Source of the DNA: Psammoneis japonica
Taxonomy: Eukaryota
Direction of reading: 5' to 3'
Assembly (NCBI GenBank): GCA_008632985.1
Contig: QPGO01000020.1
Coordinates: 434,001 to 498,000, forward strand
Length of the DNA: 64,000 nucleotides
Shown: positions 1 to 62,720 of the stretch, one piece after another
Layout of the letters: every line of letters starts with the position of its first letter
How positions within the stretch are numbered: position 1 is the first letter of the stretch
Notes under the pieces: generated by a model
Seen by the model: only the letters and a program-made list of their open reading frames with translations
Database searches by the model: none
Told to the model about the DNA's origin: nothing
Position numbers and translations under genes: made by a program

Positions 1-1929
1 GTCAGGAGATCATGGTTGAAGTGCTGACATGTTGTGTCCTCTTTTCCAGGTCTGCCAGGAGGAGAGCTGTGCAGTGACAGTGATGTGGAAAATGACCAAG
101 GCAAGTGTGAAAAGGTTGCTCATTGTTGTAGAATTTTTCACAATGCAAAGCATGCTGACAGGCATTGCTTGTTTCATTTGGCACAGGCATGGTGTCGTTT
201 GGCTCGGCAGAAGGATTGATCACTTTCTTGCACTTTTGAGCATGAGATCCTCACTTGTGAGATCACCAGAATTTCTTGGATGCAATGTGAGCTCTTTTGG
301 CTGGCTTTTTTGTCTCACACACAGCATGGACAATTGTCGCAGGCCTGGGCAGTGCAGTCAAAATTAAGGCCACCACTTCAATGCCGGAAGACTGGTCTCC
401 AGACACTGGATTTTATGGGGAGCAGCAGTCAAGGTAAATGTTGGTGAGAAGGGATGCAATGCAGGTCAGTTTGTTCATGCTCATCAGCTTCTTTGACTTC
501 TCTGCTGTGCCGGCGACTCTCCTCACAGTGCTTGGACCTTCAAAGCACACACTTTTTGGAGACTTCACAGTGGAAGGGGGTCCAACGGCTGCACTGCAGA
601 TTCTCTTGTTGGGCAGGTTGGTCACAGCAGACAATTCGCAAGACAGGAGACAACTCCCAGTTGCAGCTGGCCATTGAAATCACCAGCCCATGCCACTTTG
701 TGACACTGCTCTTTGACAAAGCCATTCTCATCATTGCAGTGATGATTTCCAGTGCTTGGAGCCCAGCAGAGAGAGCTGCCTGCACACTCACCAAGTCCTG
801 GATCAAACCCACCTTTCATGGTTAAATGGCACCAACTGCGCTTGTTGATTCTTGTCATTGCTCACATTCAATGTCCTTCCATGCAGCAGATGCTTCCTGG
901 ACCATTGCACAGTGTTCAATCTACATTGTCAACACACTGTGCATTGGTCCATGCATGCAAAACAATGAAAACGGGTGTCTGACAGAAGGGTTCCGGCCAG
1001 CTGTCATCATCCAATTGTTGCTGGCAGCATTTTCTGCAGTTTGACCCCAATCTCAGAGCATTGACCACTTGAAAATGCCTCTTTGCAGACAACGTGACAA
1101 TTTGAGCCATGCTCCAAATCGATTTTGTTGGAGCTGGTGTGTTCACAGGATCCAATCAACTGCCCAGGACAGTCTCCTCAAGTCACAGAGGGTGGTGTTC
1201 AAGCCATTGGTTGAAACTTTTGGATGGATTGACACAGACTTTGAGGCAATTTGATTGCCACAGATGATCATGGCAGGCAAGGATTGCCGTGCTTGCTTCT
1301 GTTTTTGGATTTAAACTTGCCAAAGGCATGGTCTTTGCATCTCATGAAGTGAGCAAGAATGGCACTGCTGCTTGGAAAGCCGTTGCCGGAAGACAGAGAC
1401 TGGGAAGATTGTTTCATCTTCTTCCCTCTGTCACCATTGCTGCAAATGAAGACAATGGCCAGAGTTCATCAGCCACACATTCTCAGTTCCCAGGGGCTCA
1501 CTCTGGTGTTGAGTTTGATGACATGTCTTGGTGTCTCCAATTGGAGAAACAGGCTTGCTGGGTGGATGGTGCACAACGCACAGGCCAGCACCACTTGAGA
1601 AAACAAAATGGAGCATGTGGTGGTGTCCCCATGTCCTCCCAGCAAATGTTTGCCAAATGCCAAGCCAGATCATCAACACCACCACAAATGCACATTGGTT
1701 TGAGTTGCTGCCTGCATGACATGCACCACCCCAGTTGCACTCAGTCTGCATTTGTTGATTGTTGAGTGGGTTTGCCCAATTATGAAGCATTTGCACTCTT
1801 GATTTGGGAAGCTGCAAGCCTTGTCTTGGGCAGCAGCAGCCCCTCATGTGATTCCTCCACAAACAAGAAAAGATGCCCAGCTGCACAAGGTGTGCAAGCA
1901 TCAGGCCCACAGATGTGGCAAAGGAGGTG

Positions 1930-3500
1930 TGCAGTTGTCTTGGGATGGCATTGGAGGACTCCAGTGGTGGGTTGCCAGGGACATGTCAACAACCATGGTT
2001 GGGGAGCAAAGGCCTTGTCTTGTGTCAATGCAGCACCTTGTCTCTCTGACATGGCTGGCTTTGGCCCAGCCAGCCAACCTGCAAGGACAAGAAAACCATC
2101 TGTGCAACAGTGCAAGTGCTCTGTTGTCTTGGGATGGCATTGGATGACTCCATTGGGTCCCAGAGGATGCAATGACAACAATGGCTGGGAAGCAAATGCC
2201 TTGTCTTGTGTCAACACAGCACCCTGTCTCTCTGACATGGCTGGCTTTGGCCCAGCCAGCCAACTTGCAAGGACAAGAAAACCATCTGTGCAACAGCGTG
2301 CAGGTGCTCTGTTGTCTTGGGTGGCTTTTGGTGACTCCATTGGATCCCAGAGGGCACAACAGCAACAACGGTTGGGAAGCAAAGGCCTTGTTTTGTGCAA
2401 ATGCAGCACCTTGTCTCTGTGACATGGCTGGGTTTGGCCGAGCCAAAAGAGCCAATTTGCAAGAAGGATGAGGGAACCATCTGTGTGACAGTGCAAGTGC
2501 TCAGTCATCTTGGGATGGCTTTTGGTGACTCTGTTGGATCCCAGAGCACACAACAACAACAGTGGTTGGGAAGCAAAGGCCTTGTCTTGTGTCAACGCAG
2601 CACCTTGTCTCTCTGACATGACTGGCTTTGGCCCAGGAGCCACCCCACACCCACAGAGACAAGAAAACCATCTGCACAACAGAGTGCAAGTGCTCAGCTG
2701 TCTTGGGATGGTGTTGGATGACTCCGTTGAGTTGCAGAGGATGCAATGGCCACAGTGGTTGGGAAGCAAAGGCCTTGTCTTGTGTCAGCACCCTGTCTCT
2801 TTGAACATGACTGGGTTTGGCCCCCCCAGCTGCTCCACCTGCAAGGACAAGAAAGCCATCTGTGTGGCAACGCAAGAGCTCTGCTGTCTTGGCATGGCCA
2901 TGGATGACTCCATTGGGCCCCAGAGATGCAACAAAAGCAATGGCTGGGAAGCAAAGGCCTTGTCTTGTGTCAATGCAGCCCTTTGTCTCTCCAACATGAC
3001 TGGGTTTGGCCCAACCACCCCACCCACAGAGACAAGAAAACCATCAGTTGTGCAACAGTGCAAGTGCTCAGTTGTCTTCGGATGGCTTTTGTTGTCTCCA
3101 TTGGATCCCAGAGGACACAACAACAACAGCGGTTGTGGGGCAAAGACCTTGTCTTGCATCAATGCAGCACCTTGTCTCTGTGACATGAGTGGGTTTGGCC
3201 CAGCCAAGAACTGATTTGCAAGAAAGACAAGGGAACCATCTGTGCGACAATGCAAGCACTCAGTTGTCTTGGGATGGGCACAATGCTCTCCATTGGGTCC
3301 CTGACAAGGAGGTGAGGACAACAACAGTTGGGAAGGAAAAGCCTGGTCTTGGGCCAAAGCAGCCCCTTTTCTTTTTGATGTGATTGGCTTGCTTTTGCCC
3401 AGCCACCCCGCCTGCAGAGACAAGAGAGCTTTCTGCACTGTGTGACAGGGCAAGTGCCCAGTTGTCTTTGGATGGCATTGGGTGCCTCCATTGTGTCCCA
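1930..3500. repeat. Tandem satellite A, ~185-195 bp unit, ~8-9 degenerate copies
   Basis: The core GCAAAGGCCTTGTCTTGTGTCAA..CAGCACC recurs at ~2006, 2192, 2379, 2573, 2766, 2951, 3140 and 3336. An isolated partial unit lies at ~5030-5110. Confidence 0.9.
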
Positions 3501-3739
3501 GGGGAGCCAACAACAGTCACTGAATGGAAATTCATGGTGTTCCCTGTCTCTTGTTTGGATGGAAAACCATGAGATGACAGAAGAGCATGACCCACCTTCT
3601 TTACAAGGTTGGTCTCCAAAGTTGTCATTTTGCTGGCACAAAGGGTGTGTTTCTGAGCTTTCTGGAGAGAGGCGATTGTCTTGTTGGCAGTGGCAAGTTT
3701 TGAACACACCAAATGGCAAAAAGGTGTTGATTGAAGTCC

Positions 3740-6700
3740 CGGAGCTGGGAGCATGCAGCACGATTGTGAAAATTTCAATCTCAACAAGAACACATCAATG
3801 TGACAAAATCAAACTTGTTGAATGCGTGTGTGACATTGATGGCTGAATGATTCATTGAGGTTGTTTCAAATCATTCAAACCATTGCATCATGACAAAAAC
3901 ATTGATTTTTAAAACAAAATTGTGTCTGAAAAAGAGATGCCAACGGGAATCAACTGACGGCCAGGCTTGCATTTTGGCTGAAAACACAAATTGTTGCTCC
4001 CTCACAAGACACAAAAAATGCAAACTCAAGCAGCATCCAACATCTGACAATGAGAGCATTGGGACAGGCAATGGCATTGCAGATGGGATGGAGCAAAATG
4101 CAGGACACAAGGTGAGAAAAACAAGTGGTGAGTGCACGGAGATCAGGTGTGCAATGCAAACAACTGACACTGGTGCACATCTTTGCACACAGACATGATC
4201 TGCACATGCAACCTGAGCTGCAGTGGAAGATGGGCAATGGGGAGGGCACAAAGGTGAGCAGAAGCAGCCCATGAGACAAGATCATGCTGAGAAACACAAG
4301 ACATGCCCATCACCTGATCATTGGCACAAAGTTTTCTCTTGTTGCAAGCAATGCTTTGGCCTGCCAAAAAGAGGGAATTCAAGACAGATCATTGCAGGAC
4401 AGCATTGTTGCCTGGTGCAAATGATTGCAGAGAGAATGAGAGTGGTTGCAAGGGAGGGCACAAGGACCAAAACATCACACTCCTCATGCAGGGACTGTGA
4501 AGGACAACAGGAACTGGTGGGATGCAGGAGAAAAACAAGAATGGGAAAGGGGAGCATTGTTCAGTGTGCAGTGTGGAAATGACAAACTGGAACATTTGCA
4601 AATCAGACAACAAGCAGCACACAGCCAGTGTGCAATCAGGTTAAAAAGACAATTGGATGTCGTCATTGTCAGAAATGAACAATGTCAGAAAGTTGTTGTG
4701 AACACATGATTGTCAAGATGGAAACAAATGCAAGTGACAAGTTTCATCAACTGTTGTTTGTGGGCAGATGTGTGAGAACAATGTCAAAACAAGTTGGTGT
4801 GAAAAATTGTCAAGAATGTGTGTGCAATGCAACTGATTTACATTGGCCATTTAATCCCAATTGGAAGCTTGAAATGACCACTAAATTCCCTTTGTCAATG
4901 GTCATTGAGGACTTGTCAAGAACTCACAATTCTGAACAAGAGAATGTGAACTCTGAACAAGAGCCACAATGTTTTCCAGACGGACATCACTGGCTTTGGC
5001 ACAGCCACCACACCCCTGCAGAGACCCCCAGTGAGCCATTTGTGTGACAGCACAAGTGCTCAGTTGTCTTGGATGGCTGCAGGAGACTCCATTGGGTGCC
5101 AGGGGATGCAACAACAATCACAGGAATTGTGTGCCAATGCATGAGAAATTTGAGATGTTCACGTGGAATGGTTGGAGAGTGGAGGTCATCAGCCATGGTG
5201 GGCAGTGGCTTCGCTGTTGATGGAAGCAGCAGCAGTGGCAACAGTTGCTGGGTTGTCAGCTGGTGCTGCTGCAGCTCTGGCCACAGGGCCTTGGTGTCTC
5301 TGGGGGCTCCTCCTGCTGCACTCTTGTGGCTGAGGTTGAGCTTGAGATCTGCCAACCCCACCTGCATCACCATGGCCAAGACGAGCACTGCGGCACCAGA
5401 ATGGTTGGCAGCACAAGGATGGCCACCACCGCCTCCACAGGGGCAGTTCACACATTTTTTAGCAGCATTGTTGCAACACACCAAAGAGAAAATGTGGTTG
5501 TGAGGGCATCAAGCAGACTGTGGAGATTGAATCCCGGAGCATTGAAAAAAGATGGTGTGCGGCAGCAAGACTGTGAAAATTTCCATCTTAACAAGAGCAC
5601 ATTGACATGACAAAAAATGAGAAATTGACACACTGCAGACACACATGAAAAATCTCAACAACTGGATGATTCAATCAAGTCATTTCAAATCATTCAAACC
5701 TTAAAAATCAAATGTGAGTGTGGAATTTTAAAACAAAATTGTTGTCACTTAAAAAGTGATGCTGACAGGAATCACACCAGGCAGACAGGCTCAACATTGC
5801 CACAAAAACACAAATCATCATTCCCTCACAAGACACAAAACACAGGACACAGGGCTCATCCAACATCATGACAATGACAGCAGCAAGGGAGGGCAACAAA
5901 GGAGCACAGAGGGGGGAAGGACAATGCGGGACACACGGTGAGAGAGAGAGAGGCAGGAACTGAGTCAACGAGTGCATGGAGCTCAGGCAACAATGCAAAC
6001 AACCAAAGCTTTGGTTGCTCTTTCCACTCAGACATGTTGGCATGCAAGGGGAGCCAGAAAGAAAGATGGCCTTGCAGGGGCCACACAAAGGCAGCAGAAA
6101 CAGTGTTTGCACCAAGCACATTCAAAACAAAAAACACACAATGCTCTCATCTGCTGTTGCACACTCTTTTCTTTTTTTTCTTTTCTTTGCAGACAACACT
6201 TTGGCAAACTAGCATGAAAAACAAAAGAGACAAGGTCGCACACAAAGGTGAGCAGAAACGCCATTTGTGCTGAGCCAAGTCCGTTCGAAACAAAACACAC
6301 ACAGCGCTCTGTTTTGTTGCAAGCTCTCTTTTCTCTTTTTTGCAGGCAACACTTTGGCAAACCACTGGCATGATGAACAAAAGTGACAAAGTCACAACAG
6401 TGTGGAACAAACAACATGGTTGTGATGAGCAAGAGCGGCTGCAAGGGATGATGCAATGAGTGAAATGTCACACCACCATGTGAAGAGGACAGAAAATGAC
6501 TGTGACACGGGAGCACTGGCAGGAGACAGGACAAAGCCAAGGAGGGAAGAGCAGGAAACAGGAAGCAAAAACATGTTCACTGCAGAAATGATGAAACACA
6601 GCAAGCACAAATCACATCACAAGAAGCACACAGCCATTGTGAGAGCATCTTGGTGAGACCATGAATGAATGTTGTCGTTGTCAGAAATGAGCAATGTCAG

Positions 6701-7010
6701 AAAGCAGTCACAACTGCACCCTTGTAAAGAACAAACAATTGCAAGTCACAAATTTCATCAATTGTCATTTCCTGCTTTGCCTCTTTGTTCAATGTGGGCA
6801 CAAACCGAGTGGTGCAAAAATCATTGTGGCTGCAATCTTGTCAAGATTGAGTGGACAATGAGACCTGCAGATCAAGCACATTTTCCTGCTTGGAATGTAA
6901 AAACAATTGTTAAATTTGCTTTGTTCACAATTGACAAGCACTTGTTAAGAACCCAGAGTTCTTGTTCAGCGCAAATGGGTTCTGAGCAAGAGCCACAACA
7001 TTTTCCAGGT
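3740..7010. repeat. Degenerate direct duplication (~3740-5000 vs ~5550-7010)
   Basis: Shared anchors in the same order: TTTCAAATCATTCAAACC (~3864/~5683), CCCTCACAAGACACAAAA (~3999/~5823), CACAAAGGTGAGCAGAA (~4247/~6241), CAAGAGCCACAA..TTTTCCAG (~4958/~6987). Confidence 0.75.
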
Positions 7011-7623
7011 GGGAGTGTGGGGGGAGCGAACAGCAGCACAACAAGAGAAACAGGAACAGGCTCCTCCTTTGTGGCCAGATCATGGCACTCTGTTGTTGTG
7101 AAACCCATCAAAGTGAAAGGAGACAGAGCAGAGCTGCTCACAGCTCAGAGGAAAGGAGAAAAGGAAGATCAGTGCAATGCCTGCCCGCCACACGGCAACA
7201 CCACCCCTTGGTGCTGCACCTGCCACTTGGCGGCTCGCGTCTTGAATAAAATAATGTCTCTCCAGCCATCCTTATGTAAATTGTGATCGTTTAACAACAG
7301 CCTAACATTTAACAAAATTTATTTAAGGGGTTTTCTTGCCTCAGACACAATGGTTGAGCACATGCTACAGCCCCCTTGCCCAGATACGAAGAGAGATCGA
7401 TAACATAGATTACAGTACCGGTACGTAGATGATGGTCGGTTCAGATGATGATGGATGGTTTAGATCTTCTCCGCTACCGCCACTCTATCTCTAGAGAGAG
7501 TGTCTCGCTATCTCTGTGCCTGGTTCTCCGAGCGATTTTTGTTCTTCTCTCTTCTGATTGTTCTATCATCAATCTTTTCATCTTTCACCTTTCTCAATTG
7601 CTGATGCAGTTCGATTCGAAAAC

Positions 7624-9888: not shown

Positions 9889-10039
9889 ATAAGACTATAA
9901 TACCCAAAATAACCAGGCTCAGCGGTCTCTTTCGGCGACACGTCTCAAATCTGGATTGTATTGAGGATGTTGCGTGCCGGAGATGAGGAGGAGTGGAAGT
10001 GTGGTGTTCCCCTTTGTCAAAAGCGACAAGACTGGTTCA

Positions 10040-15134: not shown

Positions 15135-16439
15135 ATCATCCCGTATAGTGTAAAGCATTATAAGCTTTCATGCCAACAAACTCTTCTTGCTAGTAGTAGA
15201 AAAGCGTCTTGTCTTTCGGTGGTAAACGTGCAGGCAACAGCATCCAAGTGGCGCGTTGAAGAATCTGAATCTGTGGACCAAGTGAGCGGATCTGAAACCG
15301 CCCTACTTTTCTGCAACAAAGGCTGACTTGCAGGATGAGTTCAAGAAACTTTGAAAAAGAATCTAAAGTTGAATGATTGCCCACCTAAAGATAAAGAGAA
15401 GCTGAAAGACGAGATCGCCAAGATTAAAGAATCCATCCATCCATCCACTTGTCCTTTCCATCATTGGCACAGGCGCTTGCACAGCATCAGCAGCGAGCGC
15501 AGCACCAGTGCTCACATCATCAGCACAGGCGCTTGCACATCATCAGCAGTTGGCAGCGAGTTCAGCACAGGCTCAAGTTCAAGAAATGTGGTGACGTTGA
15601 TTGCCCATGGTTCGAGTGCTCACTGAGAAAGATCTCTTCCTGTTTGCAAGTGGCGCTGGCATGATTTGCTCCATCGCACAGACCTTTCTTCGTCTCAAGT
15701 TTGACAGACAGCTGCAAGTCAAGTGGGCGGAGTGGAAAGGGGGTGGCCCATCCACCCAAAACTCATCACCACCGACCACGTGGCACAGCTTCTGGCATTC
15801 TTCCAATGACAAAACACAATTTTTTTCTGATGGTGCCCCCAACCCATGACTCACATCATGCAAATCTCATGGTGTTGTGGTGAGAAAACACAGTGTGTCA
15901 TGCTGCAGTTGTGATGGTGCAGCAGCAAGATCACATTGGTGCGTGCATTTCTGGTGGCTTTGGCGATGTTCTTGCCTCTCCTTGTCCTGCTCACAGTGTC
16001 TTTTTTGTCTTGCTGTGCTCCAGAGCACATCAGTGGCCAGTTTCCACAAATTGACAATGTTGCAGATGGCGTGTGTGAGTGTCATTGCATGAATTTATTT
16101 GTGATGAATCATCGCCATTTGGCATGAATCACACCCATTCACCACAAGAAGGTGTGGTTAAAAACAAACAAATGTCCATGCAAACTAACAAATGTCTGGT
16201 GATGTCAACACACAGTCATTGATCCCAACAAGCAAGGTGCAACTCAACAAGTTTGCATCTCCAGACCAGTTGCTTGGCGGGATTGTGCTTTGCTTGTCAT
16301 CGCCGACCAGGTGATGACTGTGTGTGGCATTGGGTCTCATTTTCAATTTTTGCTGTCAAAATCAATCGGTTGACTTGCGTGTCAAAACAATCATTCTCCA
16401 TTGTCCCATCCGTTTGTTGCATGTTGCTGCTGCAATCAA

Positions 16440-17330
16440 TCATCAACAATTGTGAGTGCAAGCAATCACTGCCAAGTCAATCTCGACTGAACCACCGCCA
16501 AGTCCAGTTTGTAGATTTTGGCACAGATGACCTGTTGGTCATCTTCATCATCCAAGCCATCCTGTGCTTCTTTCACCACCTGTTGATCTCGCTCAGTTGT
16601 GATGGCTCTGCAGAGCTGTTCCCACCACCCAAGTCGTCTGCTTGCAACATCTTGCTTGATCTCCATGACCATTTCAACAAAGAACTTGTCAGCCTTTGGC
16701 AACCACCCTTTGCTCTTCCTTGGTGTCTTGCGCTTCCTCAGTCCCGCGCTTCCGTCTGTGTCTTTTGGCTTTGCTGCCGTGAAATGCTTGAGTGTCCTGA
16801 CAACCTTTCTCTTCTTGCTGGATGCGCCCGCATCATTTTGGATGTCAACGAGCTTTTTCGCAGCCTTGGTCAGAGCTGTGACTCATGCCGCAGTCTTTGG
16901 CTTGTCTCTGATCAACTTGACCATTGCGTCCCATCTCTCAACCAACTCCATGTTGCAATTGGACTTCAAAGTCCCATCCTTGTTTTGGCTCTTGCAGTTG
17001 GCACACCATGCATTGCAGTTGTTCTTGAGGAGCATGTGGGCAAACGCCTTGGCACATGCTGTGCCCGTTCTCTTGTTCTTGGTGGTGCACTCTTTCCAGT
17101 GTGTGTCTTCAACAATCGGGTGCAGCGTGCAGTCATGGAACACCACCTGCAAAGCCGGGTTTCCCAAGCAATCTTGGAATCTTTCTGCGGACGGCAAGAT
17201 GCAATTGTTGTCATTGCAGTGTGCACAAAGAGCTTCATTCATGGCAGGGAAAGCAAGTGACGACACTGTTGGCAACTGCAATGGCTGTTCTTGTTGCACC
17301 CTCCATTTGCACTCACTGTGGAGCTTGTCC
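16440..17330 (-). pseudogene. Decayed ORF of unknown (probably TE-associated) family
   Basis: Protein-like fragments AFAHMLLKNNCNAW..TLKSNCN and DKFFVEMVMEIKQDV..WWEQLC across frames. Cys occurs where Tyr would be plausible. Confidence 0.35.
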
Positions 17331-17899
17331 TGATGTGCCTGGTGAGCAATTCAAAACGTTTCATCTTAAATGTCTGAACATGTGTTTGCCATGATGTCCA
17401 ATGTCTCTTTACAGCCAACTCTCCAACAGCTGCTGACTGCAAGAGGCAATGGCTTCATGCTGTGACAACAGCAAAAGCAGTCTTGGACCAGAGTGCAAGT
17501 TGACAAGCAACCACATCATCAACTGTTGCCACTGCTCACCACCCCACAATGTGAAAACTCCACCGTAAAGTGACTGTGCATGCATTGTGCATTTGTTGGC
17601 GCTCTGCACCCATCTGTGGTTGTGGATTGCTGGGACAAGCAGGCGTGATGAAGCTTGCTGCAGGTTGCGACACCAGTTCTGTAATTTTTTAGGATTGAAC
17701 AGTGATTGGAGGTCTGTGGTGTTGGCAGATTCGGGTCTGGAGAAACAGGTGGTGGGAGAGTCGTGCAGAGTGTGCTTGGGGATGGAGAGAAAAAGGGTTT
17801 GCCGAGGGTGCAGACAGATGATTGAGAGGAGGAGTTGGTGATTGCAGGATGGCGAAGAAGAAAAACTTGACATGCAGAGAGGTGGCTGGAGAGGACAAA

Positions 17900-23394: not shown

Positions 23395-23815
23395 AGCTCA
23401 AATGCCTCTGCACATGAGTGGTGAAGGCAATCTTGTCAAAGAAAACAAGTGAGAAAGTGAAACAAAAGCACTGCATGATTGGATTGCAACAGAGAGCGAA
23501 AACGGGCATCGAGCCGTGTGGTGTGTCAGCGCCAAAATCTGTTTTTTTTCCATCTTGCGGGGTTGTCAGCCGATTGCCTTCCAACAAGCAATGCATGTTC
23601 ATTCTACATGACAGCAAAGACCAGTGGACAGCGTTGGCGTTGTTAAAAGGATTGCATCTGGTCTAAAAAGCCGCTCCGATTCATTCTCATGGTGTGTGGT
23701 GTTTTGAGTTTCGAGGTGTGATACGCAAACGTGACTGATGAGTCCCGTATACGCTCATAAAATCGCGCGGTCTGAGCTCGTCTCGCGCGTCTCAGTCGTT
23801 ACCGTAAAGTGTACG
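23395..23815 (+). repeat. Dispersed repeat / putative element end, copy 1 (mostly hypermutated)
   Basis: Collinear with ~49555-49935 (e.g. CTCATGGTG.GTGG, ACGTGACTGA(A)TGAGTCCCG, CTCAGTC.TTACCG). Confidence 0.75.
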
Positions 23816-45400: not shown

Positions 45401-47990
45401 TGCATGATGTCATCATCTGCTTTGTGCCTTGTGAGTGGTGACACAGATCTGGTCAAATCCATGTGATCTCAGGGCATTTTTTGTTGCCCAACAAATGCCC
45501 CAATGCACAAGTTTCCTGATTTGCATTTGCTGCAGAAATCAAGCAGCATGGTGGCAAAACCAATGCAACATCAAACCAACAACATCAGCTGACACAACAC
45601 ACCAAGACACCATGAGTGTGAAGACCAGGAAGATGGTCTGGCAAAAGTCACAGACAAGGTGTCATCAGCAGACAAGCACTTCCGCTGCAACTGACATGCT
45701 GCCAGATGTCTCCAGTGTGTGGGTGGATGAGTGCCTCTCCAAGGAGGGGTGGATTGGTGGTGTGGCTGGCACAACTCTCATTGAATGCCACAAAAGTCAT
45801 TGCTGATTTGACAAAGGTGAAGGGCATGCACATGTTGCTGTGCAAGGCCAAGACACATGCCATGTTCTTTGATGGGGTGGCGAACATTCAGAAGGCCACA
45901 AGAATTGTCGAGGTGGAGTTTCCCTGGGTTTCCTGTCCACATGGTGCCAAGCATTGCATGGCACTTTTCTTTTAAGATGTGGCTTGGCTGAAACCCATTG
46001 ATGCAAGTGAAACAGTCTTTTCTTCATCCACCGTGTCTTTCCCAGTTGTTCTTTGCACTGCTGATGCTCACACCAAGGTGCAAGAGACAAAGTTCTGCTG
46101 AGCAACAAGGTGACATGCAAGAGTGTGCTTGTTTTGCAAAGCCACACAAAAGAGCACAGCAGCAAAGCAAGGGCAGATTGAAAGCCAACAATTGTGTGAA
46201 AACATGGAAAAGCACCAACATGAGTTAATTTCTTGTCTTGCACATGTGCATCAGCAGCGCTGAAAATCTTTGACAGAGCAGCTGCACTGACACATCATTC
46301 ATTGCAAACCCACCCTGTCAGCACAAGTTGAAACAACTCTCTGCCCACCTCCAAAAACCAGCGGTGCACCATGCAAAGCTGTTGCAGCAAGAAAGTGTCC
46401 TCTCCAGCCAGAGTGCTCCTTCTCAGCTGCCATTCAGGGGCTCCATCCCCTGTTTGCTTGAAAGCAAACCATGCTGCTTTGCATTTTCCATCTTTAAATG
46501 ATGGTCTTCCTCTTTCAATCATTGAGTCTTGCTTCTGATCTGAAAGGATCTTGGAGGTGGAGCACTGTCAAACCAAGAAAGAATGGCATGACAAGAACGC
46601 CCATCATGCAAAGACCCTTGCTCTGCTTGGCAGTTGCTTCCAACCACCAGCACCAGCTCTGGGGCAGCTTGAAGCAACAAAGAGGAAGGGGCTGCAGAGA
46701 AGCACTGCACACAATGAGAGGTGCTGGATGGTGGTGGAACATCTGGTGTGAGCCAAAGCTCAGCAAAAAATTGCCAAGTGACTGCATTGTTGAGCAGCTG
46801 ATGCACTGTTGCAGAGCAAAACCTGTGTGCCCGAATGAGCTGCAATTGAAACTTTTCTCTTGCATCTTTTTTGAAGCATCCCTTGCAAACATGATTTTGG
46901 GTTGTGTGTTTGGGCTGATTGTTTTGAGTGGCAGCTGCCACAGCACATGATGTGGACCTGGCATTGTTGGAGGCCATTTGTGGCATGAACTTGCTGACTT
47001 GACATGCTTGTGCTGCCAACAATGAAGGTTTCACCACTTTGAAGGATGTCAGAAGTTTGTGAATCTGGTGCTGACATTGCCAAGAGATGGCAAAGTGGTG
47101 CCTGTCAGCTCGTGCAAGCAGTGCAAAAGGGAGGGCAAATCTTGGCACTGCCTGGAGCAGCTCTGGTGGGGGCCAGCAGCCACAGCCCATGCCGGTTAAA
47201 ATCAAAAGGGGCATCTTGGAGGCTTTGGCTGGTGGCTTGAATGTTTTGCATCCTTGGTGACTGTGGTGCACATGAAAGTGCATTCCTGCACTTGTTGTTG
47301 CAGAAAGTGGGGGAAATGGAGGCACCATTTGCAGTGTGTTGTGTGAACCCAGGCTGGTGCAATGGTGTTCACAAACAATGGGGAGTGTGGCATGGTGTCA
47401 GTTGCCACTTGCCAGCATGGCGGCATTTGATGGGGGTGCTTGTCAGGAGTGCTGCATGCTGAAGAAGGGTTTTTGGCTGGTGCTCCAGGTTTTATGCCAC
47501 AGACTCATGGCTGAGAATGAAGCTGGCTGACACAACACAGCGCAGCATCTGAAATGTCAAAAGATGTGTCATGCCTCCTGGAGTTTCACAGTCAATTGTT
47601 CTTCAGTGACTTGGAGAATGCTCACAATTTTTCTGTCATGGAAACAGCAGAAAGCTTTGCTGTTCTTTGCTGCAGCAGTTTCTGTCATAGACAGGGCAAG
47701 TCCAACCCAATTTGTTTGGAAGAAGACATGGAACTCCAGGCTGCTCTGTTCTGCAATTCACTGGCACTTGAGCATCAGCCCTGGACTTGGTTGGTGGTGC
47801 TACAGCACTGTCCCAAATGACTCTGACAGAGTGTCCATCATCATTTGAGGATGATGTCAATGTGCTTGTGACTGAGCTGCCCCAGCGAAGCATTTGCCAA
47901 CAAGGTTCTGAGAGCAAGCTGTGCTGTGTGGGCAGCATGCACACCAAGCTTGTCACAGGATGAGCTCCTTGAATGGGCTGGCCACCATGT
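42440..47990. other. CpG- and TpA-depleted block 3, mosaic of decayed coding/TE fragments
   Basis: Same signature as the other blocks. Sharp return to normal composition at ~48000. Confidence 0.9.
45780..45990 (+). mobile_element. Small fragment of a hAT-like (DUF659-type) transposase
   Basis: MFFDGVANIQKATRIVEVEFPWVSCPHGAKHCMALFF resembles the D.ASN..KA..FP...C..H...L.F catalytic segment. Confidence 0.6.
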
Positions 47991-48006
47991 TGGAGCAAAG
48001 CGAAAG

Positions 48007-48968: not shown

Positions 48969-49195
48969 GGAGAGGCAACCAAATCTTTCATCAATGGGAA
49001 TTTTCGGTACACCTGCCATGGGAAGTATAAAACTTCTTAGTCGGCACGCCTGCCCTGAGAAGTTTGAAACTTCTTAGTAGGCACGCATAAAGCACACGCG
49101 GTGCTTCCAACCGCTACTTATGAATGTAAACTAAAAATGTTGTTAGTCTAGATTGCGTTTGAAGAATTCTGGTTCTACGGTACATTTCGTCTTAA
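48905..49195 (+). repeat. ~290-bp direct repeat, copy A (copy B at ~51465-51750; partial copies to ~52070)
   Basis: Near-identical sequence from GATGATCCGCAAGATTCTAA to GAAGAATTCTGGTTCTAC in both copies. Confidence 0.92.
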
Positions 49196-49935: not shown

Positions 49936-49974
49936 GTAGTTGCAGTGACACATCGCGATCGCTCTGCATCGACA

Positions 49975-52070: not shown

Positions 52071-52412
52071 AGCCGCGAGCGGGGGGCTTTAGTTGTTATG
52101 GGATAGCTGTCAAAAGTTCGCCGAGTCCTCTCACGTATAGTATTTAATCTCACGCGACCAGTGGCCTTGACCTACGTGTAGCTCTCCAAGCTTTGACGGC
52201 TTCACGGAAGATACAGCCCAACTTTCTTGTCGGGAAGGGATAGCAGAGGTGATGACTAAGGGTCACGTGCTGGCGTTCCCTTTCTGCGTGTAATACTCTC
52301 TACTTATGTGATCTAAGACAAGTATCATGCCGGCAACAGGGCTGGATTAACGCTAGACTCGTTTCCCTTCGCTGGTTGTCCTCTCGGAAGACGGCGCGGG
52401 TGATACTCATTT

Positions 52413-55084: not shown

Positions 55085-55290
55085 CAGGGTGTGTTAGTGT
55101 GCAAAAAGTCACATTCATTTGAACAGACTTTTTACTGACTTTGACTACAGTCACAGTCAAAGTCACTTAGTCAAGAGCACCCGATCAAAAGTCAACAGTC
55201 AAAGTCAGGCAGTCAGCTGAGGATGACCACAAGTCAACCAAAAGTCAAAGTCAGTCATGTCTCATGGTGTTCAGTCAGCAAACTCACTGA
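55085..55290. repeat. Cluster of AGTCA/TGACT pentamers after CAGGGTGT, probable transposon subterminal repeats
   Basis: More than ten AGTC(A) copies in ~200 bp at the exact block edge. Confidence 0.6.
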
Positions 55291-55689
55291 CATGCTTTTC
55301 AGCACCATCTAAAACTTGTTTCTGCTTTTCACAAGAATGAATCTGAGCAATTTGCTGCATCCCAAAACTTCCACACATGCTGTCCAGCAATTGTGCTGGC
55401 CTTTGCCCACCAGGATTTTGTTGCCTCAAGGTCAAACTCAAAACAACCTTGCCAATCAGGCTCTTTCTTTGTCGAAGATCTGGCACATTTGCAGACAATG
55501 GCACCCTCATTTTGTTTATTTTGTTTTGAAAATCTTGTTCACAATTGACTCGCTTGTTTCAAAGCTGGCTCACTCGGCGGCTCTCTCAGCCACATCTCTC
55601 AAAGAATTGTCGGGGTTTCACCATGTTGGCACTGCAGCTCCCAACCATTTTTCTCAAAGCGCTGCCTGGGACCAACAGAAGATGTTCAA

Positions 55690-58530
55690 TGATGTTTGAC
55701 AGTTGATCTTGTCAGGGTGGTGGGTGCATGGCATTGCTTCACTTCAGAAATTTGAGCTCAAGTCTCACACCCTGACAATTGCGCAAAGTGAGATGCAGCC
55801 AGAGAGTTGCACAATGGTTGCTTTGCAACTCCCAGCCATGGCTCTTAAAGTGTCACCTGGGGTCCACAAAAGCCTTTCAATGGTGTTTGACAACAGTTGT
55901 CAGGTGGGTTCATGCACTCATGGTGTTGCTTGGCTTCAGAAATTGGGCTCAAGTCTCACCTTGACAATTGTGAAAAGCGAGGTGGAGCAACAGTTGCGCC
56001 ATGGTGGCTTTGCGGTGGCCTTGCAACTCCCAACCATGACCATTGAAGTTTCCCCTTGGGTCCCCCAAAGACATTTGGCAGCATTTGACAACAGTTGTGG
56101 GGTGGCCAGAGGTGCGCTCACAGCATTGTTTCGCTTCAGAAAGATTGGGGTTCAAGTCTCACCCTGGCAGGTGTGAAGTGACCAGAGCCAGAGCTGTGCC
56201 ACAGTGGCTTTGCTGCAACTCCCCACTGTTGCTTTTAAAGTGTCACCCAGGGCCCACTGAAGACATTCAAATGGTGTTTGACAACAGTTGTTGGGTGGGT
56301 GACTGCACAAATGGTGTGCTGCTTCATTTTGTGGGGAATCAAGTCTCATCCTGACACTTTGTAAAGTGACGTGGGCCAGAGCTGAGCCAGGGTGGCTTTG
56401 CAACTCCTGGCCGTGGCTGTTGAAGTGTCACCTGGGATCCAGGGAAGACGTTCAATGGTGTTTGACAACAGTTGTTTGGTGGACAGGCACGTTCATGATG
56501 TTGTTTCACTTCAGAAGTTGGGGCTCAAAAGTCTCACCCAGACATTGTGAAGTGACATGGGCCAGAGCTGAGCCAGGGTGACTTTGCAAATCCAGGTGAT
56601 GGCTGTCAAAGTGTCCCCTGGGGTCTGCTGAAGACATTCAATGGTGTTTGACAACAGTTGTTTGGTGGGTTGGTGCTTTCATGATGTTGTTCCACTTTTG
56701 AATTTGGGGTTCAAGTCTCTCACCCTGACATTTTGTGAAGTGACATGGGCCACAGCTGAGCCAGGGTGGCTTTGCAACTCCCTGTCATGGCTCTTGAAGG
56801 GTCCCCTGGAGTCCAAGAAAGACATTCAATGGTGTTGGACAGCAGTTGTTTGGTGGGTGGGTGCACACATGGTGCAGTTTCACCTCAGAAGTTGTCAATC
56901 AAGTCTCACCATGACATTTTGTCAAGTGACATGGGCCAGAGCTGAACCAGGGTGGCTTTGCAACTCCAAGTCATGGCTGTCAAAGTGTCACCTGGAGTCC
57001 ACTGAAGACATTCAATGGTGCTTGACAACAGTTGTTGTGTGGGTGGGTGCACACATGGTGCAGTTTCACTTCAGAAGTTGGGAACTCAGCCTCACCAAGG
57101 GGGAAGTCATGTGAAGTGACATGGGATGCAGCTGAGCCAACGTTGCTTTGACACTCCCTGCCATGGCTCTTGAAGCATCACCTGGGGTCCGCTGAAGACA
57201 TTCGATGGTGTTTGACAACAGTTGTTGGGTGGGTGGGTGCACACATGGTGCAGTTTCACTTCAGAAATTGGGGCTCAAGTCTCTCCCTGACATTGTGAAG
57301 TGACACAGAGCCAGAGTTGCACCACAGCGGCTTTGAAGCTCCCAACCATGGCTCTCAAAGTGTTGCCTGGAGTCCACTGAAGACCTTCAATGGTCTTTGA
57401 CAACAGTTGTTGGGTGGGTGGGTGCACACATGGCGCTGCTTCACTTCAGAAGTTGGGGGAATCAAGTCTGACCATGACATTTTGTGAAGTGACAGATGCT
57501 GCAGCTGAGGCAGGTTGGTTTTGAAACTCCCTGTTGTGGTGCTTGCAGTGTTGCCTGGGGTCCATGGAAGACATTCAATGGTGTTTGACAACAGTTGTTT
57601 GGTGGGTTGGCACATTCATGATGTTTTTCCACTTTTGAATTTGGGGCTCAAGTCTCACCCTGACATTTGTGCAGTGACATGGGCCACAGCTGAGCCAGGG
57701 TGGCTTTGAAACTCCCCACCATGGCTCTTCAAGTGTCACCTGAGGTCCACTGCAGACATTGAATGGTGTTTGACAACAGTTGTTGGGTGGGTGGGTGCAC
57801 TCATGGAACTGTTTCACTTCAGAAGTTGGAAATCAAGTCTGACCATGACATTTTGTGAAGTGACATGGGCTGCAGCTGAGGCAGGTTGGCTTTGAAACTC
57901 CCTGCCATGGCACTTGCAGTGTCACCTGGGGTCCACTGAAGACCTTCAGCAGTGTTTGACAACAGTTGTTTGATGGGTTGGCAGATTCATGATGTTGCCC
58001 CACTTTTGAATTTGGGGTTCAAGTCTCACCACCCTGGCAGTCATGTGAAGTGACATGGGCTGCAGCTGAGCCAGGGTGGCTTTGCAACTTCTGACCATGG
58101 CTGTGGCTCTTAAAGGAATGCTGGGTGTCCACCAAAGACATTTGTTGATGTTTGAACAACAGTTGTTGGCTGGCGGTTGCACAAATGGTGTGCCCTTTTG
58201 CATTGCAGTTTGGGGCTGGGTGGCACCAAGCAACACTCAGCCAGAGTTGTGCCCCAGTGGTTTTCCTGTGGTTTTCAACTTGAAGCGGTGCCAGAACAGC
58301 CCAGCAACTCTCATCCATGACTCTCAAACAAAAAACTGTGATGTCAACAATCTTCAATCAACACAGGTGTGTCACAAAGATTTTGGGTTTCAAGAAGTGC
58401 CACCCTGACAATTGTGCGAAGTGAGATGAAGGCACAGCTGAGACTGGGTGACCTTGCAACTCCCAATTGTGGCTCTTGAAGGATTGACTGTTGTCCACCA
58501 AAGACAGTCAATGACATTTGACAGCCATGA
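55690..58530. repeat. Tandem satellite B, ~185-197 bp unit, ~14 copies
   Basis: TTTGACAACAGTTG-like core at ~55887, 56084, 56277, 56461, 56647, 56835, 57021, 57211, 57396, 57584, 57769, 57955 and 58151. Confidence 0.93.
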
Positions 58531-58689
58531 CTCTAAAACAAAAAAACTGTGATGTCAACAACAATCTGCATTCAAGAAAGGTGTGTCACAAAAATTGTGA
58601 CATCAATCTTGCATTTTGCACACAGACGCGCTTCATCAGATTTGGACAACATTTGCAATGCAGCCAAGGAACAAATGATTTCTAATGTC

Positions 58690-61000
58690 AATCAATCAAA
58701 ACCAATGAAAACACTGAATTAAACCAATGCAGCCACTGCATCACCATCAAGAATCTCTCACGCAAGGTCTCACTGGCATGTTCGTCATCTGGAAGAATGG
58801 TTTTGGCACTTTTCAAGAGAGCTTCTTTGTCTGTCTTAGGAGCAAAAATTGTGGCATTGTCCATGTGCCACTTGCGGTTCTTGGCATTCAGGATGCACAG
58901 CTTGAATGTTTCATTGCCCATTTGATTGCAGCAAGGGTGGTTCACAAAGGTGCCCCAGCTGAACACTCGCTCCTGACGGGCAGCATTTGAGTCTGGCTTT
59001 GCAAGAATTCTGGCAGCAACCAAAGCAATTTTGGGGAATCGACATGAGTTCTGAACCCACCATTCACCCACTTTGAAAAGTTTTGTGAGCTTCAATGCAT
59101 GCAAGTGAGGATCTTGGCCTTGTCTCACTTTTAAACTAGACACGTCAACACCCTGAGCTTTGAGAACTGCCAGCCAATCCTCTTTGATCCGCCAGAACTG
59201 GTTGAACTCTTCCTTGGCAAGTTTCTTGGGGGTGTCCTGTGCACCATTGTCTGCAGAATCAGCTGGCTCTGACTCAGCCATGAGAGAAGTGAGAAATGCC
59301 AGCTCATTGTTGTCATCATCATCCTCACACACAACAGGAGGATCAGTGCTGTCAGATGAAGATTCAGGTGCAGGGTCGGGGTCGGAGTTGTCTTCATTGC
59401 CACAGATGCTGTTGGGGGGAGGGTGCATGGCTTCCACCTTGTTTTGCAACAGCTCCCCAGCCCGGCCCATCAAGGTGCGTGCCTTGTCTGAGTCAATCAT
59501 TTCCATGCCCTTTGATCTGCATGTCGCCACAACAGGGCGACACTCAATGGCCAGCAACTGATCATCCATTGGCTTGGCAAAGCACAGATCCATTTCTGAG
59601 AGAATCCTCTGGTGCAGTTTCTGTCCAAAAGCAGAGAGAGGGCAGTGCACCTTGGGAAGATCACTGTGGGAGATGTTGGCACTTGGCCAGAACTTGTTGC
59701 CTCCACTGAGGTCAACAATCTTCAGCTTGGATGCATCGGCAATGCAAGCCCTTGCAGTCATGCAGTCCATGAGTGACACTGCAATGGCGGCAAGTTTGTC
59801 AGCTTGAACTGACATGGAATGATCATGAAGAGGGTGCAACAAAGCAGCTTTCTCTGCAATGCAGAGCCAGTCCTCCTCCTTCTCAAGAACCTTGCTGTTT
59901 GCAGCAGGTCTGTCACCCACCAACAAAGTGCAAAGTTTGATCTCGTGATGCCACACAAGCAGCTGCTGACTGAGCAGCCACACACCTGCCATGCGAGTGT
60001 TGCCAAGGCAAAGACACAGCAGCAGGATCCTTGCAGCTGCGGCAGCCATGCTCAACTGTGACGTCCACAAACTTGCGGTGGCACACTTTGTTCCTCTTGC
60101 CAAACATCCAATCAACTGGCTTCTTGGCTGAATTTAGAATCCGCATTGACTCATCAAATGAGTCAACCACCACACAGCTCTGTGTCCTCTTGGCAATGCC
60201 GGCAGAATGCTTGATGACAAGTTCAATGACATGCATCTGCAACAAATGGGACAGCAGCAAACAAGCCAGAGTTGGAACACCATTGAAACAAGCAGCACAC
60301 ATTGATGGGCCGTGCAACTGGCATGTGCCTTTAATGTCTTCATCATCTGAGGCGGCGACAATGAGGCTGCCAAGAGAAACAGCAGAGTTTGTTGTGTTGT
60401 TGACCAAATGGCACACAAGTCATCCTCTGCATTTTTGGGCTGGCCTCTGTGAGAAGACATTTCTTTTGTGTCACTCACTTGATGCTGTTGCTGTGCTTGC
60501 AGAGGCAGCAAAATGATGCTCTTCATGCAGACAACAGGGCAGGAGAGTCAATTGCACCAAAATTGTCATGAGCAATGGTCTTGGCAACCACAGACATCTT
60601 CTCTGTTGCCAGGCTCTTGGTGTGAAAGTAAAATGTGATGAAGATGGTTTGCCAAGATGGGCTTTCAAGTGAAAGACAGGAATTCCCATGGCAGGTGCCG
60701 CAAATTCTGTGTCAGGTGCTTTTTGCAGTTTGCCATCCAAGCCAAGCTCACTCAAAGACTTCATTGAGCCAGAGAGACTGCACACAGAAAAGAAACTGAC
60801 CTGCATTTTGCAGCCAACAATGAGTGCAGCTCATGCATCAAGGTTGCTGAATGCTGCAATCAGAGTTGTGCATTGTCTTGGGTGGGCTTTTAGATGGGCA
60901 GAGTTGTGGACAAATTTTGGTGACAACTGGGGGCCCTTGCTCAAACCCGGAGAGAAAGAAGAGGACATGACAAAAAAGGCAATTGAAGCTCATGGAGAGC
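58690..61000 (-). mobile_element. Decayed hAT-superfamily transposase
   Basis: hAT C-terminal dimerisation domain GEWWVQN..RFPKIALVAARILAKPDSNA..ERVFS. Upstream QMHVIELVIKH (CxxH-region-like). Stops and frameshifts. The 5' limit is approximate. Confidence 0.82.
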
Positions 61001-61519
61001 ACACTGGAAAGTCAGTGCAGCAACTCTAGAAGATGCCATCTCAGCTCTGGAAGCTGCCTTGAGATCCCGTGATTTTTGCACTCATGAGGGTGACAACAGG
61101 GTTGCACTGGACAAGGTGTTGTGGTCGCCATTGCAAACTGAGAATCTTGCAGGAACACTGCCACAGATCAAGATTGATTTCTTTGCTGAAAATGGTGCAA
61201 GTTTTCTTTGTTGCAGCTCCAGTGATGTTGACATGCTCTGACAATTGTGGTGTTTTCTCTGCTTCTTTAAGTTGGTTGCACCTGTCAGTCTAAATCCAGG
61301 CTGCTGGGGTTTGGTGACAATGAGATCCTGGTCTCTCACAGCGGAGGCTGCATCCACATGAGCAGCAAAAACACCAAAATGTGAACTTGGAAGCTGCCCA
61401 TTGCCCAGATGACAGGATCTCTGTCCAAAAAGGTCATGTTTGAAAAATTGCATCCAAGGCTGCTGAAGGGACAATGGCGCTGTCATCCCTCCAGAGGAAA
61501 TCCTGAGAGACCACACAGC

Positions 61520-62720
61520 CTCTGGTGAAAAAGGCAAAAAAAGAAGGTGCCCAAGAAGAAAGCACCAGCATCAACACTGGCAGGAGCACCAAAAAGAGTG
61601 GGGCAGCCACCAAAGAATCCACTCTTGCCTTCACCATGAGGAAGTCAAAAGAACAAAGCTTGGCAGACCATGGAGGAATCCAATGGTTGGTGCAGAGTCA
61701 GATGAGACATTGGCATTGCCCTGCGAGAAAAGCCGACAAAAAGGAGGCGATCCGTCAGACTGGGTTGAAAACCAAGGGTGCTGCAGGCCACCAACAAAGG
61801 GGATGGGATTGCAGGTGAGGAGTTGTCCACCATGAGAAGGGGCAGACCCAGGAGGAAAGCATGAGCAAAGAGAGCTGCAGAGATTGTGCCTGCCGACTCT
61901 GGAGACATCTCTCGAAAATTGGAGCGGCAAAAAAAATCAAGGTGGTGGACCCCCCAGGAAACCTGCAGAAATGGTTCCCACCCACTGAGTCAAAGAAAAT
62001 TTCTGGATGTCAAAACCTGCCACTGATCTGGAGATTGAAGTGTCAATGAAAGATGACGAGGACAAGGCATTGAATCCTCTAACATCAAAAGAGGCACCAG
62101 CAGAAGATGGGTGCGGAGCTCCGCCTGAAATGAGATCCGCAGAAATGCAAGGCAACCTGCAAAATTGGAACCCAGACATGCAGCTCAAAATGAATGAAAA
62201 AGTGATGGGAGGTGACGCATTCAAGGAATTGGATTCCAAGACAGAAGCAACACTTGAGGTTGAAAAAGAGCCGGTGGCCAAGTCATCTGAGGAGAAAGGG
62301 CCAGGCGCCGAGGGTGCGATGTGGAGTCTCAATGCGGAGCCAGCAGTGACCCAACCCATGGAGAAGGAGACCACCGAGATGAATGAAAATGTTGATGAAG
62401 AAGATTCCCCGGAAGTTGTTGGGAAGTGGACAGGCAGAACACCACTTGCCCCACGACCATGTGTGGCTGGTGTGGCCGCCTCCAGACTGCTTGGGAGATT
62501 TTGACCCTAAATGTTGCGCAAGGATGACGGGTGACAGTGAGCTGTTCCCCACAGTGCTTGGCATGGCACCCCCAGCACTGTCGAGTGCACACGGAAGAAG
62601 TGAATGTGTCGTTGTGCCAGCCTGTGAGGCCGCTCCTCAACTCATGGGGACAGAGAATGACACCCAGCTGACATTTTCGATCAAGAGTTCATTTCCTTGT
62701 TACGCTGAGTGGTGTTCATT
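61520..62720 (+). pseudogene. Decayed Lys/Glu-rich ORF divergent from the hAT relic
   Basis: Consecutive protein-like ORF pieces (61525-61818, 62007-62504, 62383-62724). No family recognised. Confidence 0.3.

Follow-up and report, generated by a model that had tools for sequence, protein, structure and literature searches.

A stretch of 64,000 nucleotides from the genome of the diatom Psammoneis japonica (assembly GCA_008632985.1, contig QPGO01000020.1, positions 434,001 to 498,000 of the forward strand; hereafter the window) contains four blocks of repeat DNA that are strongly depleted in the dinucleotides TA and CG and rich in TG and CA (Table 1). Our analysis confirms that the depletion is real at these positions. 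We consider it probable that two context-specific transition processes have acted in place on the repeats, one removing CG and the other TA, the latter like the TpA editor of the chlorarachniophyte Bigelowiella natans. The main new result is the context rule followed by the loss of TA: T-A-T is lost most readily, followed by T-A-C, T-A-G and, far behind, T-A-A, with TTAA nearly spared.

Dinucleotide frequencies are given as observed/expected ratios (o/e), and the four blocks (28,683 bases) were compared with the remaining 35.3 kb of the window. TA occurs 90 times in the blocks (o/e 0.05) and 1467 times in the rest (o/e 0.61); the corresponding figures for CG are 317 (0.19) and 2025 (1.00). TG and CA are raised, with 3307 (1.76) and 3194 (1.89) occurrences in the blocks against 2541 (1.18) and 2533 (1.13) outside. 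For the other 12 dinucleotides the two ratios differ by at most 0.16, as in AA (1.19 in the blocks, 1.16 in the rest), AT (0.83 and 0.93) and TT (1.25 and 1.13), and A shows no depletion in the contexts AA, CA and GA. The G+C content is about 0.49 inside the blocks and about 0.48 outside. These values bear out a sequence-only reading made earlier, which had described four blocks poor in CpG and TpA and saturated in TG/CA, with AA, TT and AT still common, next to genes with normal TA and CG. The pattern is present in all 1-kb windows within the blocks, and it is confined to the blocks, which hold multi-copy DNA, satellites and a hAT transposon relic; the adjacent host genes are unaffected.

The block limits are sharp. 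Maximum-likelihood change points lie at most 430 bp from the seven inner edges proposed earlier, and in 100-bp bins the composition switches over one bin at all seven. At four of the seven, the TA-poor zone reaches 245-430 bp past the CG-poor zone, leaving TA-free margins with near-normal CG density, one of which overlaps an open reading frame (ORF), where TA is already low. The TA process seems to be slightly longer-reaching than the CG loss at block edges. Counted over six frames, the blocks contain 105 TAA and 41 TAG stops versus 624 and 634 outside, and 34 Tyr codons versus 1675. TGA is nearly the sole stop left in the blocks, which have 132 stop-to-stop ORFs of at least 90 amino acids (aa).

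The block sequence is reproduced in sequencing reads. Contigs from a public run of one sample (X1) were aligned with the window, with depth taken as the summed k-mer depth. Over genes the k-mer depth is about 60, and the contigs differ from the window by one or two letters over 3.3-3.6 kb. The run contains 80% of the 31-mers sampled from positions 3000-12999, 42% of which is block DNA, and it includes 381 contigs at least 99% alike. Two contigs bridge block edges (6927-10500 and 12926-16185), the second at 57x and with two letters different. Because these high-depth contigs agree almost exactly with the window, block DNA included, base-calling artefact is unlikely as the source of the pattern; the earlier reading had named reads showing TA and CG at these sites as a finding that would count against it. 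Summed depth is 228-3351 over the blocks versus 59-168 in genes, and the blocks are therefore multi-copy. In block 1, for instance, it is 444-3351 in the bins lying fully inside, 534 in the edge bin and about 60 in the adjoining gene. A second run, X2, has a depth of 0-8 over the blocks and is uninformative on their transcription, and a third run, X3, gave no contig that could be placed on the window.

Regarding the direction of change, the counts balance almost completely. Relative to the non-block baseline, the blocks have a surplus of 2380 TG+CA and deficits of 1373 CG and 1063 TA, so that CG loss alone explains 58% of the surplus, and CG and TA loss together 98%. This upholds the proposal of the sequence-only reading that a second process, TpA>TpG/CpA (A:T>G:C), acts on the repeats.

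The hAT transposase relic in block 4 gives the direction at the level of single residues. It has an open frame of 481 codons (58691-60133), a Pfam hAT dimerisation domain (E 1e-7) and 105 homologues in a HMMER search at E <= 1e-3, the best at 1.3e-44. None of its 481 residues is Tyr, compared to 1.2-4.0% in 25 homologues. Of the 229 aligned cells with Tyr in the homologues, 38 are Cys and 20 are His in the relic, and none is Tyr. Five homologues used as controls have Tyr at 15-36% of such cells and show Tyr or Phe there, with Cys absent from their six commonest residues. The two Tyr columns with the strongest conservation (Tyr in 15 of 19 and in 23 of 24 homologues) are Cys in the relic, encoded by TGC, and at conserved Arg columns the relic has H, H, C and Q (CAT, CAC, TGC and CAA). 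The Tyr codons TAY are now TGY or CAY. As Tyr is conserved in the homologues and is Cys or His in the relic, the source family was not TpA-free; the earlier reading had named source elements already free of TpA as a finding that would refute it. Only 4 TA and 21 CG are left in the 1443 bp of the frame, 93% of the expected TA being gone. From the block stop rate of 27.9 per 1000 codons we derive a chance of about 1e-6 per start for a frame of 481 codons. The open frame, the strong homology and the few remaining TA and CG are indirect evidence that the loss of TA and CG outpaced indels and other substitutions by a wide margin.

The two satellites, A in block 1 and B in block 4, are mutually unrelated, with monomers that are 74-77% alike by Tandem Repeats Finder and self-BLAST. 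Between neighbouring monomers, CA<>TG is the top adjacent double difference, with 26 cases in satellite A and 41 in B; the next class has 8 and 15, respectively. In the eight monomers of satellite A, TG and CA are both present at 20 sites, five of which retain residual CG, and seven control double-transition pairs give 0-7 such sites. Satellite B has 25 mixed sites, six with residual CG, and 0-12 for the seven control pairs. Two sites of satellite B retain TA: column 142 (TA 3, TG 6, CA 3, TC 1) and column 62 (TA 1, TG 9, CA 1). Over both satellites, about 11 of the TG/CA-mixed sites retain CG and two retain TA. Such mixtures at one site mean that the copies resolved an ancestral CG or TA independently, in place and after amplification.

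Paralogous copies provide a third line of evidence. The X1 contigs differ from the window by 1550 transitions and 614 transversions. Among the best-supported 40 of 2191 variant sites, 18 are single transitions in blocks, and at these the paralogous contig carries TA in five cases and CG in five where the window does not, and lacks TA in one case and CG in two where the window has it; three adjacent-pair differences among the 40 are TG<>CA. The hAT Tyr-to-Cys replacements, the satellite sites with TA, TG and CA and the paralogous contigs that keep TA agree in the direction TA>TG/CA.

The loss of TA depends strongly on the neighbouring bases. TTAA makes up 31 of the 90 TA surviving in the blocks versus 54 of 1467 outside (Fisher p 3e-19), and the surviving TTAA sites are distributed across all four blocks. 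Relative to outside, survival is 0.71 for TTAA, 0.23 for CTAA/TTAG, 0.08 for CTAG and for GTAA/TTAC, 0.04 for CTAC/GTAG and for ATAA/TTAT, and 0.005-0.014 for ATAG/CTAT, GTAC and ATAC/GTAT; of about 86 ATAT expected in the blocks, none survives. With a composition-only baseline the class order is much the same and the extremes are identical. Taken as trinucleotides, survival relative to outside is 0.080 for TAG, 0.034 for TAC and 0.015 for TAT, and in each of the four blocks TAA is the best survivor and TAG the second. A four-parameter model in which the two strands lose their A independently, with the 3' neighbour as the sole determinant of the rate, describes the ten symmetric NTAN classes (X2 1.29, 6 df, p 0.97) and is favoured over uniform loss with a likelihood-ratio chi2 of 159. 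The fitted rates k are 0.20 for a following A, 1.22 for G, 2.18 for C and 3.00 for T. If some of the surviving TA are new mutations, these are steady-state figures. New TA arising from the TG and CA of the blocks would yield about 7% TTAA, compared to 34% observed, so TTAA is refractory even if some surviving TA are new.

Survival alone cannot separate an adjacent from a distal position of the deciding neighbour, and the counts of the products (NTGN and NCAN) were used for this. The adjacent flank predicts them with a root-mean-square error (RMSE) of 50 and r 0.86, against 88 and 0.42 for the distal flank, 62 for a 50/50 split and 94 for CG sources alone. Since the adjacent flank fits best, the recognition unit is 5'-T-A-Y-3' with the middle A changed or, equivalently on the other strand, 5'-R-T-A-3' with a change of its middle T. 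A 16-point regression on flanking context was weakly informative (R2 0.63 with TA sources and 0.45 without), and the per-strand model was used instead.

CG loss has a milder dependence on context. Survival in the blocks falls from 0.48 for GCGC to 0.10 for TCGA and ACGA/TCGT, CG decaying more slowly between GC-rich flanks. The flank effect is about 5-fold in survival and about 3-fold in implied rates, compared to about 15-fold for the fitted TA rates. In the satellites, residual CG pairs with TG or CA. In Thalassiosira rotula, CpG methylation has been reported at 84% in transposons versus 24.9% in genes, and by likeness to that species, from which methylation here is taken, deamination of 5-methylcytosine (5mC) in methylated transposons fits as an economical account of the CG half of the pattern. 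Across 25 1-kb block windows there are 3-22 CG and 0-6 TA per kb, and the two residues correlate weakly (rho 0.38, p 0.054). The depletions of TA and CG share a domain yet behave as separable processes, because CG varies while TA stays low and because the TA-poor zone overreaches at four of the seven edges.

The explanation that we favour, and consider probable, is as follows. The blocks would be old multi-copy repeat DNA of the diatom (satellites, the hAT relic and a possible reverse-transcriptase-like relic) on which two context-specific transition processes have run in place nearly to completion. One would convert CG to TG/CA, as deamination of 5mC does in CG-methylated diatom transposons. 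The other would be a separate A:T>G:C change, TA>TG/CA, acting on each strand independently at 5'-T-A-N-3' with rates in the order N = T > C > G >> A, so that RTAY sites vanish and TTAA is nearly immune. Its footprint would equal that of the TpA hypermutation recorded in mutation-accumulation lines of B. natans. We infer that an enzyme drives the process and that repeats or heterochromatin are its target. The leading candidate would be a TadA/ADAT-like adenine deaminase acting on DNA, and the signal that targets TpA editing may be shared with that for CpG methylation.

The sequence-only reading knew of no described pathway for such a process. On this point it no longer holds, as TpA>TpG/CpA hypermutation has been described de novo in integrated DNA of nucleocytoplasmic large DNA viruses (NCLDV) and virophages in B. 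natans (Mettrop et al., bioRxiv 2026; 10.64898/2026.01.13.699255). In the mutation-accumulation lines of that preprint, 231 of 302 nuclear mutations fell in two viral inserts, at rates about 1000x background; 230 of the 231 were A>G or T>C, and all 230 were on TpA. The B. natans genome has 124 clusters poor in TpA and rich in CpA+TpG, its TpA-poor coding sequences are enriched in reverse transcriptase (RT) and DDE domains, and an ADAT2 homologue was put forward as the enzyme (10.64898/2026.01.13.699255). The two cases are alike in the A:T>G:C change at TpA on both strands, in its restriction to foreign or selfish DNA with domain-like limits, and in the long-term loss of TpA and gain of CpA+TpG in transposon-like sequences. 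They differ in several respects. The host here is a diatom (Stramenopiles), and B. natans belongs to the Rhizaria; de novo events were seen there, and here the process is known from its footprint alone. The satellites and transposon relics of the window are saturated (TpA o/e 0.05), compared to a Rho of 0.45 for the NCLDV insert. CpG is lost simultaneously here, and the accessible text of the preprint contains no mention of 'cpg'. Finally, its main text has no counterpart to the T-A-N rule or to the near-immunity of TTAA and gives no flanking-base preference.

The phenomenon is thus not categorically new, since a matching process has just been reported from a chlorarachniophyte; for diatoms, the phenomenon seems to be unreported. 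Our literature search found no report of TpA-specific hypermutation or TpA-depleted repeats in diatoms, and the accessible preprint text is silent on this group. A mutation-accumulation study of Phaeodactylum reports a GC>AT bias and the mutagenic contexts CG, CC and TG.

Other known systems share part of the pattern. The tRNA adenosine deaminases TadA and ADAT target an A after T (U33-A34 of the anticodon loop), and the T-A-Y preference in the fitted rates comes closer to the U-A-C context of TadA-type enzymes than to that of ADAR. Early TadA-derived base editors prefer YAC, which resembles the preference for a pyrimidine after A seen here. The natural enzymes differ in that they edit tRNA, and in that TAT is here a target no worse than TAC; for the process in the window they would have to act on duplex chromatin. 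A review table lists 5'-ACG as the TadA/ADAT2 motif, with 'RNA, DNA?' as substrate. Deamination of methylated CpG, as in vertebrates, plants and diatoms, would explain the CG>TG/CA half and cannot remove TpA. The transposon hypermutation targeted to TCG in basidiomycetes (Horns et al. 2012, PMC3318451) favours a 5' T for C>T at CG, and TCGA and ACGA/TCGT are likewise the least-surviving CG contexts here; the available text of that paper describes no A:T>G:C component. Fungal repeat-induced point mutation (RIP) resembles the present case in its repeat-restricted, dinucleotide-specific transitions, in the wrecked transposon coding and in the sharp compositional domains. It differs in changing C:G to T:A, mostly at CpA, which raises TpA and lowers G+C. 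RIP was rejected as an explanation, as the blocks have a TpA o/e of 0.05, a CpA o/e of 1.89 and a G+C content of about 0.49 compared to about 0.48 outside.

Among the alternatives, one set would make the second process unnecessary or place it elsewhere than in the DNA. Modified bases could have been mis-called during sequencing or assembly, the real DNA still having CG and TA: if, on each strand separately, a modified C in CG and a modified T in TA were read as the opposite pyrimidine, the outcome would be precisely TG/CA, and the sequencing platform is not on record. We regard this as very unlikely in view of the roughly 60x run with its one or two differences over 3.3-3.6 kb, its edge-crossing contigs and its 381 contigs at least 99% alike. 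In addition, repeat copies vary among TA, CG, TG and CA at these sites like real paralogues, TTAA is spared, and the survivors obey a graded trinucleotide rule. Repeats that were born poor in TA and CG, or shaped by selection, would need no mutation in place. TpA is indeed under-represented everywhere (0.61 outside the blocks). This reading is nevertheless highly improbable given the 1.2-4.0% Tyr in the hAT family and the Cys of the relic where 23 of 24 homologues have Tyr, the monomers of one satellite that resolve the same site to TG in some and to CA in others, the equal depletion of unrelated repeat types (two satellites, hAT and RT-like), and a mass balance exact to 2%. An ADAR-type adenosine-to-inosine hyperediting of RNA, fixed through reverse transcription, also prefers a 5' U (10.64898/2026.01.13.699255, Discussion, and the review table), but the satellites and the hAT DNA transposon, which do not pass through RNA, are affected as well. 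Moreover, the ADAR optimum in the review table is UAG, yet TAG outlives TAC and TAT here, AA is undepleted, and both strands are hit equally and interleaved; the probability of this explanation is negligible.

Two further alternatives concern the nature of the process. CG and TA could be stripped by one system of dual specificity, for instance a deaminase or complex that edits both C and A, in which case the CG loss would not be ordinary 5mC decay. The TA-poor and CG-poor domains share edges within 60-430 bp, both dinucleotides go to the same products, and T, which is obligatory before the edited A, is also the most mutable 5' neighbour of CG (survival 0.10 for TCGA vs 0.48 for GCGC). ADAT2 of trypanosomes and amphioxus deaminates A and C in DNA, as cited in 10.64898/2026.01.13.699255. 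We still think one shared system unlikely. The TA-poor zone is 245-430 bp longer at four of seven edges, TA is removed more fully than CG (0.05 vs 0.19), the per-kb counts (CG 3-22, TA 0-6) correlate weakly, and the flank effects are of different size (about 5-fold in CG survival, about 15-fold in the fitted TA rates). Besides, TC outside CG has no deficit of its own, an estimated 233 missing TC being matched by TCG>TTG; the transposon CpG methylation of Thalassiosira would already account for the CG loss, and the reported B. natans spectrum is A:T>G:C only. Alternatively, a lesion or repair bias linked to chromatin could act on heterochromatic TpA without the need for a dedicated adenine deaminase, for example through oxidation of T by TET/JBP-type enzymes to 5-hydroxymethyluracil (5hmU) or 5-formyluracil, mispairing with G, or through deamination of N6-methyladenine. 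Such a bias is favoured by the tendency of 5-formyluracil to promote T>C and by the action of T-hydroxylases at TpA, as in base J and dinoflagellate 5hmU. The same holds for the equivalence of A-editing and T-editing in the data (5'-T-A-Y is 5'-R-T-A) and the restriction to repeat domains, which suits a chromatin-bound activity. A 15-fold dependence on a single neighbour and the independence of the strands point instead to an enzyme that directly recognises a single-strand trinucleotide. The window offers no evidence on base modification, and its sole 2-oxoglutarate (2OG) oxygenase gene (37102-37887) is of the 2OG-FeII_Oxy_3 family and not Tet_JBP. We judge this explanation improbable too.

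Several points count against two in-place processes as the explanation. The ancestral context frequencies were borrowed from the genes and intergenic DNA of the window and may not match those of the ancestral repeats. Processive deaminases of single-stranded DNA often leave strand-coordinated clusters, and no such clusters were found in the four blocks, where the order of TG and CA is random (runs test, z -0.75 to +1.6). The direct TA-retaining evidence is thin, comprising two satellite sites, two well-conserved Tyr columns and five paralogue sites among the 40 best supported. The observations are a footprint in one 64-kb window, with no de novo events seen. X1 shares its sample with the best DNA match and may be the assembly's own data, and its platform is not recorded. 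Finally, the limits of the TA-poor and CG-poor domains differ by no more than 430 bp, which leaves room for one shared process.

To our knowledge, A:T>G:C hypermutation directed at selfish DNA had not been known from any eukaryote before the 2026 B. natans preprint. What this window adds is the trinucleotide fingerprint, the immunity of TTAA, the saturated satellites and DNA transposon, and the co-location with CpG decay. The diatom footprint suggests that the process is widespread in the supergroup of Stramenopiles, Alveolata and Rhizaria (SAR), beyond one alga. Diatoms and chlorarachniophytes could perhaps share an old, RIP-like, SAR-wide genome defence based on a deaminase, a proposal that we advance tentatively. 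Under this proposal, a nuclear DNA adenine deaminase derived from TadA/ADAT would be drawn to repeats that are CG-methylated or heterochromatic and to viral inserts and would edit single-stranded 5'-T-A-Y-3' until the element is dead, TTAA being intrinsically immune; the same targeting signal would direct CpG methylation, and with it CG decay, as well as TpA editing. The per-strand order T-A-T > T-A-C > T-A-G >> T-A-A, with TTAA spared, is a fingerprint that any candidate enzyme has to match. Diatoms include laboratory model species with genetic tools, which offer a prospect for study if they carry the footprint too. A natural DNA A-editing enzyme with a defined context is also of interest for base editing. 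Annotation is affected as well: with nearly every TAA and TAG stop and Tyr codon gone from such blocks, gene finders may predict long spurious ORFs there, and homology-based transposon detection fails.

Table 1. Repeat blocks, their contents and other features of the window (positions counted from its first base; o/e in brackets after counts).
Feature	Position	Strand	Description
Repeat block 1	1..7230		continues past window start; TA 24 (0.05), CG 59 (0.14), TG o/e 1.82, CA o/e 1.88; right-edge change points TA 7245, CG 7185
Satellite A	1914..3516		in block 1; period ~186-189 bp, ~8 monomers, 74-77% alike
Fucoxanthin chlorophyll a/c protein (FCP) gene	14217-15131		closest solved relatives are diatom FCPs
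Repeat block 2	15400..23690		TA 26 (0.05), CG 125 (0.26); left half less CpG-depleted; per kb, CG 3-22 and TA 1-4
Two long overlapping ORFs	17522..20154	minus	in block 2; 478 and 535 aa; GC skew +0.49
TA-free margin, near-normal CG density	23360-23605		from change points
Repeat block 3	42440..47990		TA 15 (0.04), CG 46 (0.14), TG o/e 1.95, CA o/e 1.89
TA-free margin, near-normal CG density	42455-42800		from change points
TA-free margin, near-normal CG density	48000-48310		from change points
Short local repeat family	48905-49193, 51465-51755, 51908-52076		outside blocks, normal composition; around ORF 50327-51277
Repeat block 4	55090..62700		TA 25 (0.05), CG 87 (0.19); change points left TA 55170, CG 55075, right TA 62700, CG 62270
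Satellite B	55615..58190		in block 4; period ~186 bp, 374-bp higher-order unit, ~13 monomers
hAT transposase relic	58751..60404	minus	in block 4; tblastn to ~residues 267-770 of an 813-aa homologue
TA-free margin, near-normal CG density	62270-62700		from change points

The nearest protein-atlas clusters to the two overlapping ORFs of block 2 are diatom hypothetical proteins, 10% of them with RVT_1 (score 0.96), and neither Pfam nor a word-based homologue search gave a match for these ORFs; they are possibly what is left of a reverse-transcriptase-type element, which we treat as a lead. Around them, at 17400-20000, the GC skew is extreme (+0.49 at 18-20 kb), TG outnumbers CA about 2:1 on the plus strand, and Pro, Ser, Thr and His abound in the minus-strand ORFs. 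This skew could be the element's own composition or the product of strand-biased editing. In block 3, an ORF on the minus strand (44623-45255) has a weak match to a BED finger (E 0.048). Leaving out satellite ORFs and those already scanned, 112 of the 132 block ORFs of at least 90 aa were searched with Pfam, and no further family reached the curated cut-off. A metagenome scan with the hAT relic protein returned 19 matches to the pattern, all unconfirmed, and a scan with a 22-base word of satellite B gave no match.

The earlier reading had placed all recognisable transposon relics and satellites inside the blocks. This stands for both satellites, the hAT relic and the RT-like lead, but not for the local repeats between 48905 and 52076 nor for the ORF that they flank, which encodes an endonuclease/exonuclease/phosphatase domain (E 9e-7). 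The first two copies of this repeat family are 92% alike and differ by 13 transitions, six at TA and five at CG, and one site has TA in one copy, TG in another and CA in the third. The sample is small; it may show the same process at an early point in the life of a young element.

Outside the blocks, the FCP gene has two introns of about 88-89 bases, with GT..AG joints at 14532-14621 and 14702-14792 in contigs of X2. The depth of this run over the gene reaches 21,135, and X2 behaves like RNA, though it is listed as 'DNA?'. Among the closest database relatives of the protein, at 82-88% identity across the exon, are Thalassiosira proteins from transcriptomes and genomes. The gene thus places the window in a Thalassiosira-like diatom and not in Bigelowiella. 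The 2OG-FeII_Oxy_3 domain of the oxygenase gene, which lies on the minus strand, was identified at E 3e-16, and nothing connects the gene with the repeat mutation. Among the remaining genes are a sulfatase of 776 aa (7558-9888), whose best homologues are all bacterial, with 51-59% identity (among them marine Verrucomicrobiota, Pontiella and Lentisphaera) and uninformative on the taxonomy of the host, and a gene with a GH53 galactanase domain (32571-33422). Both look bacterial in type and are possible horizontal transfers.

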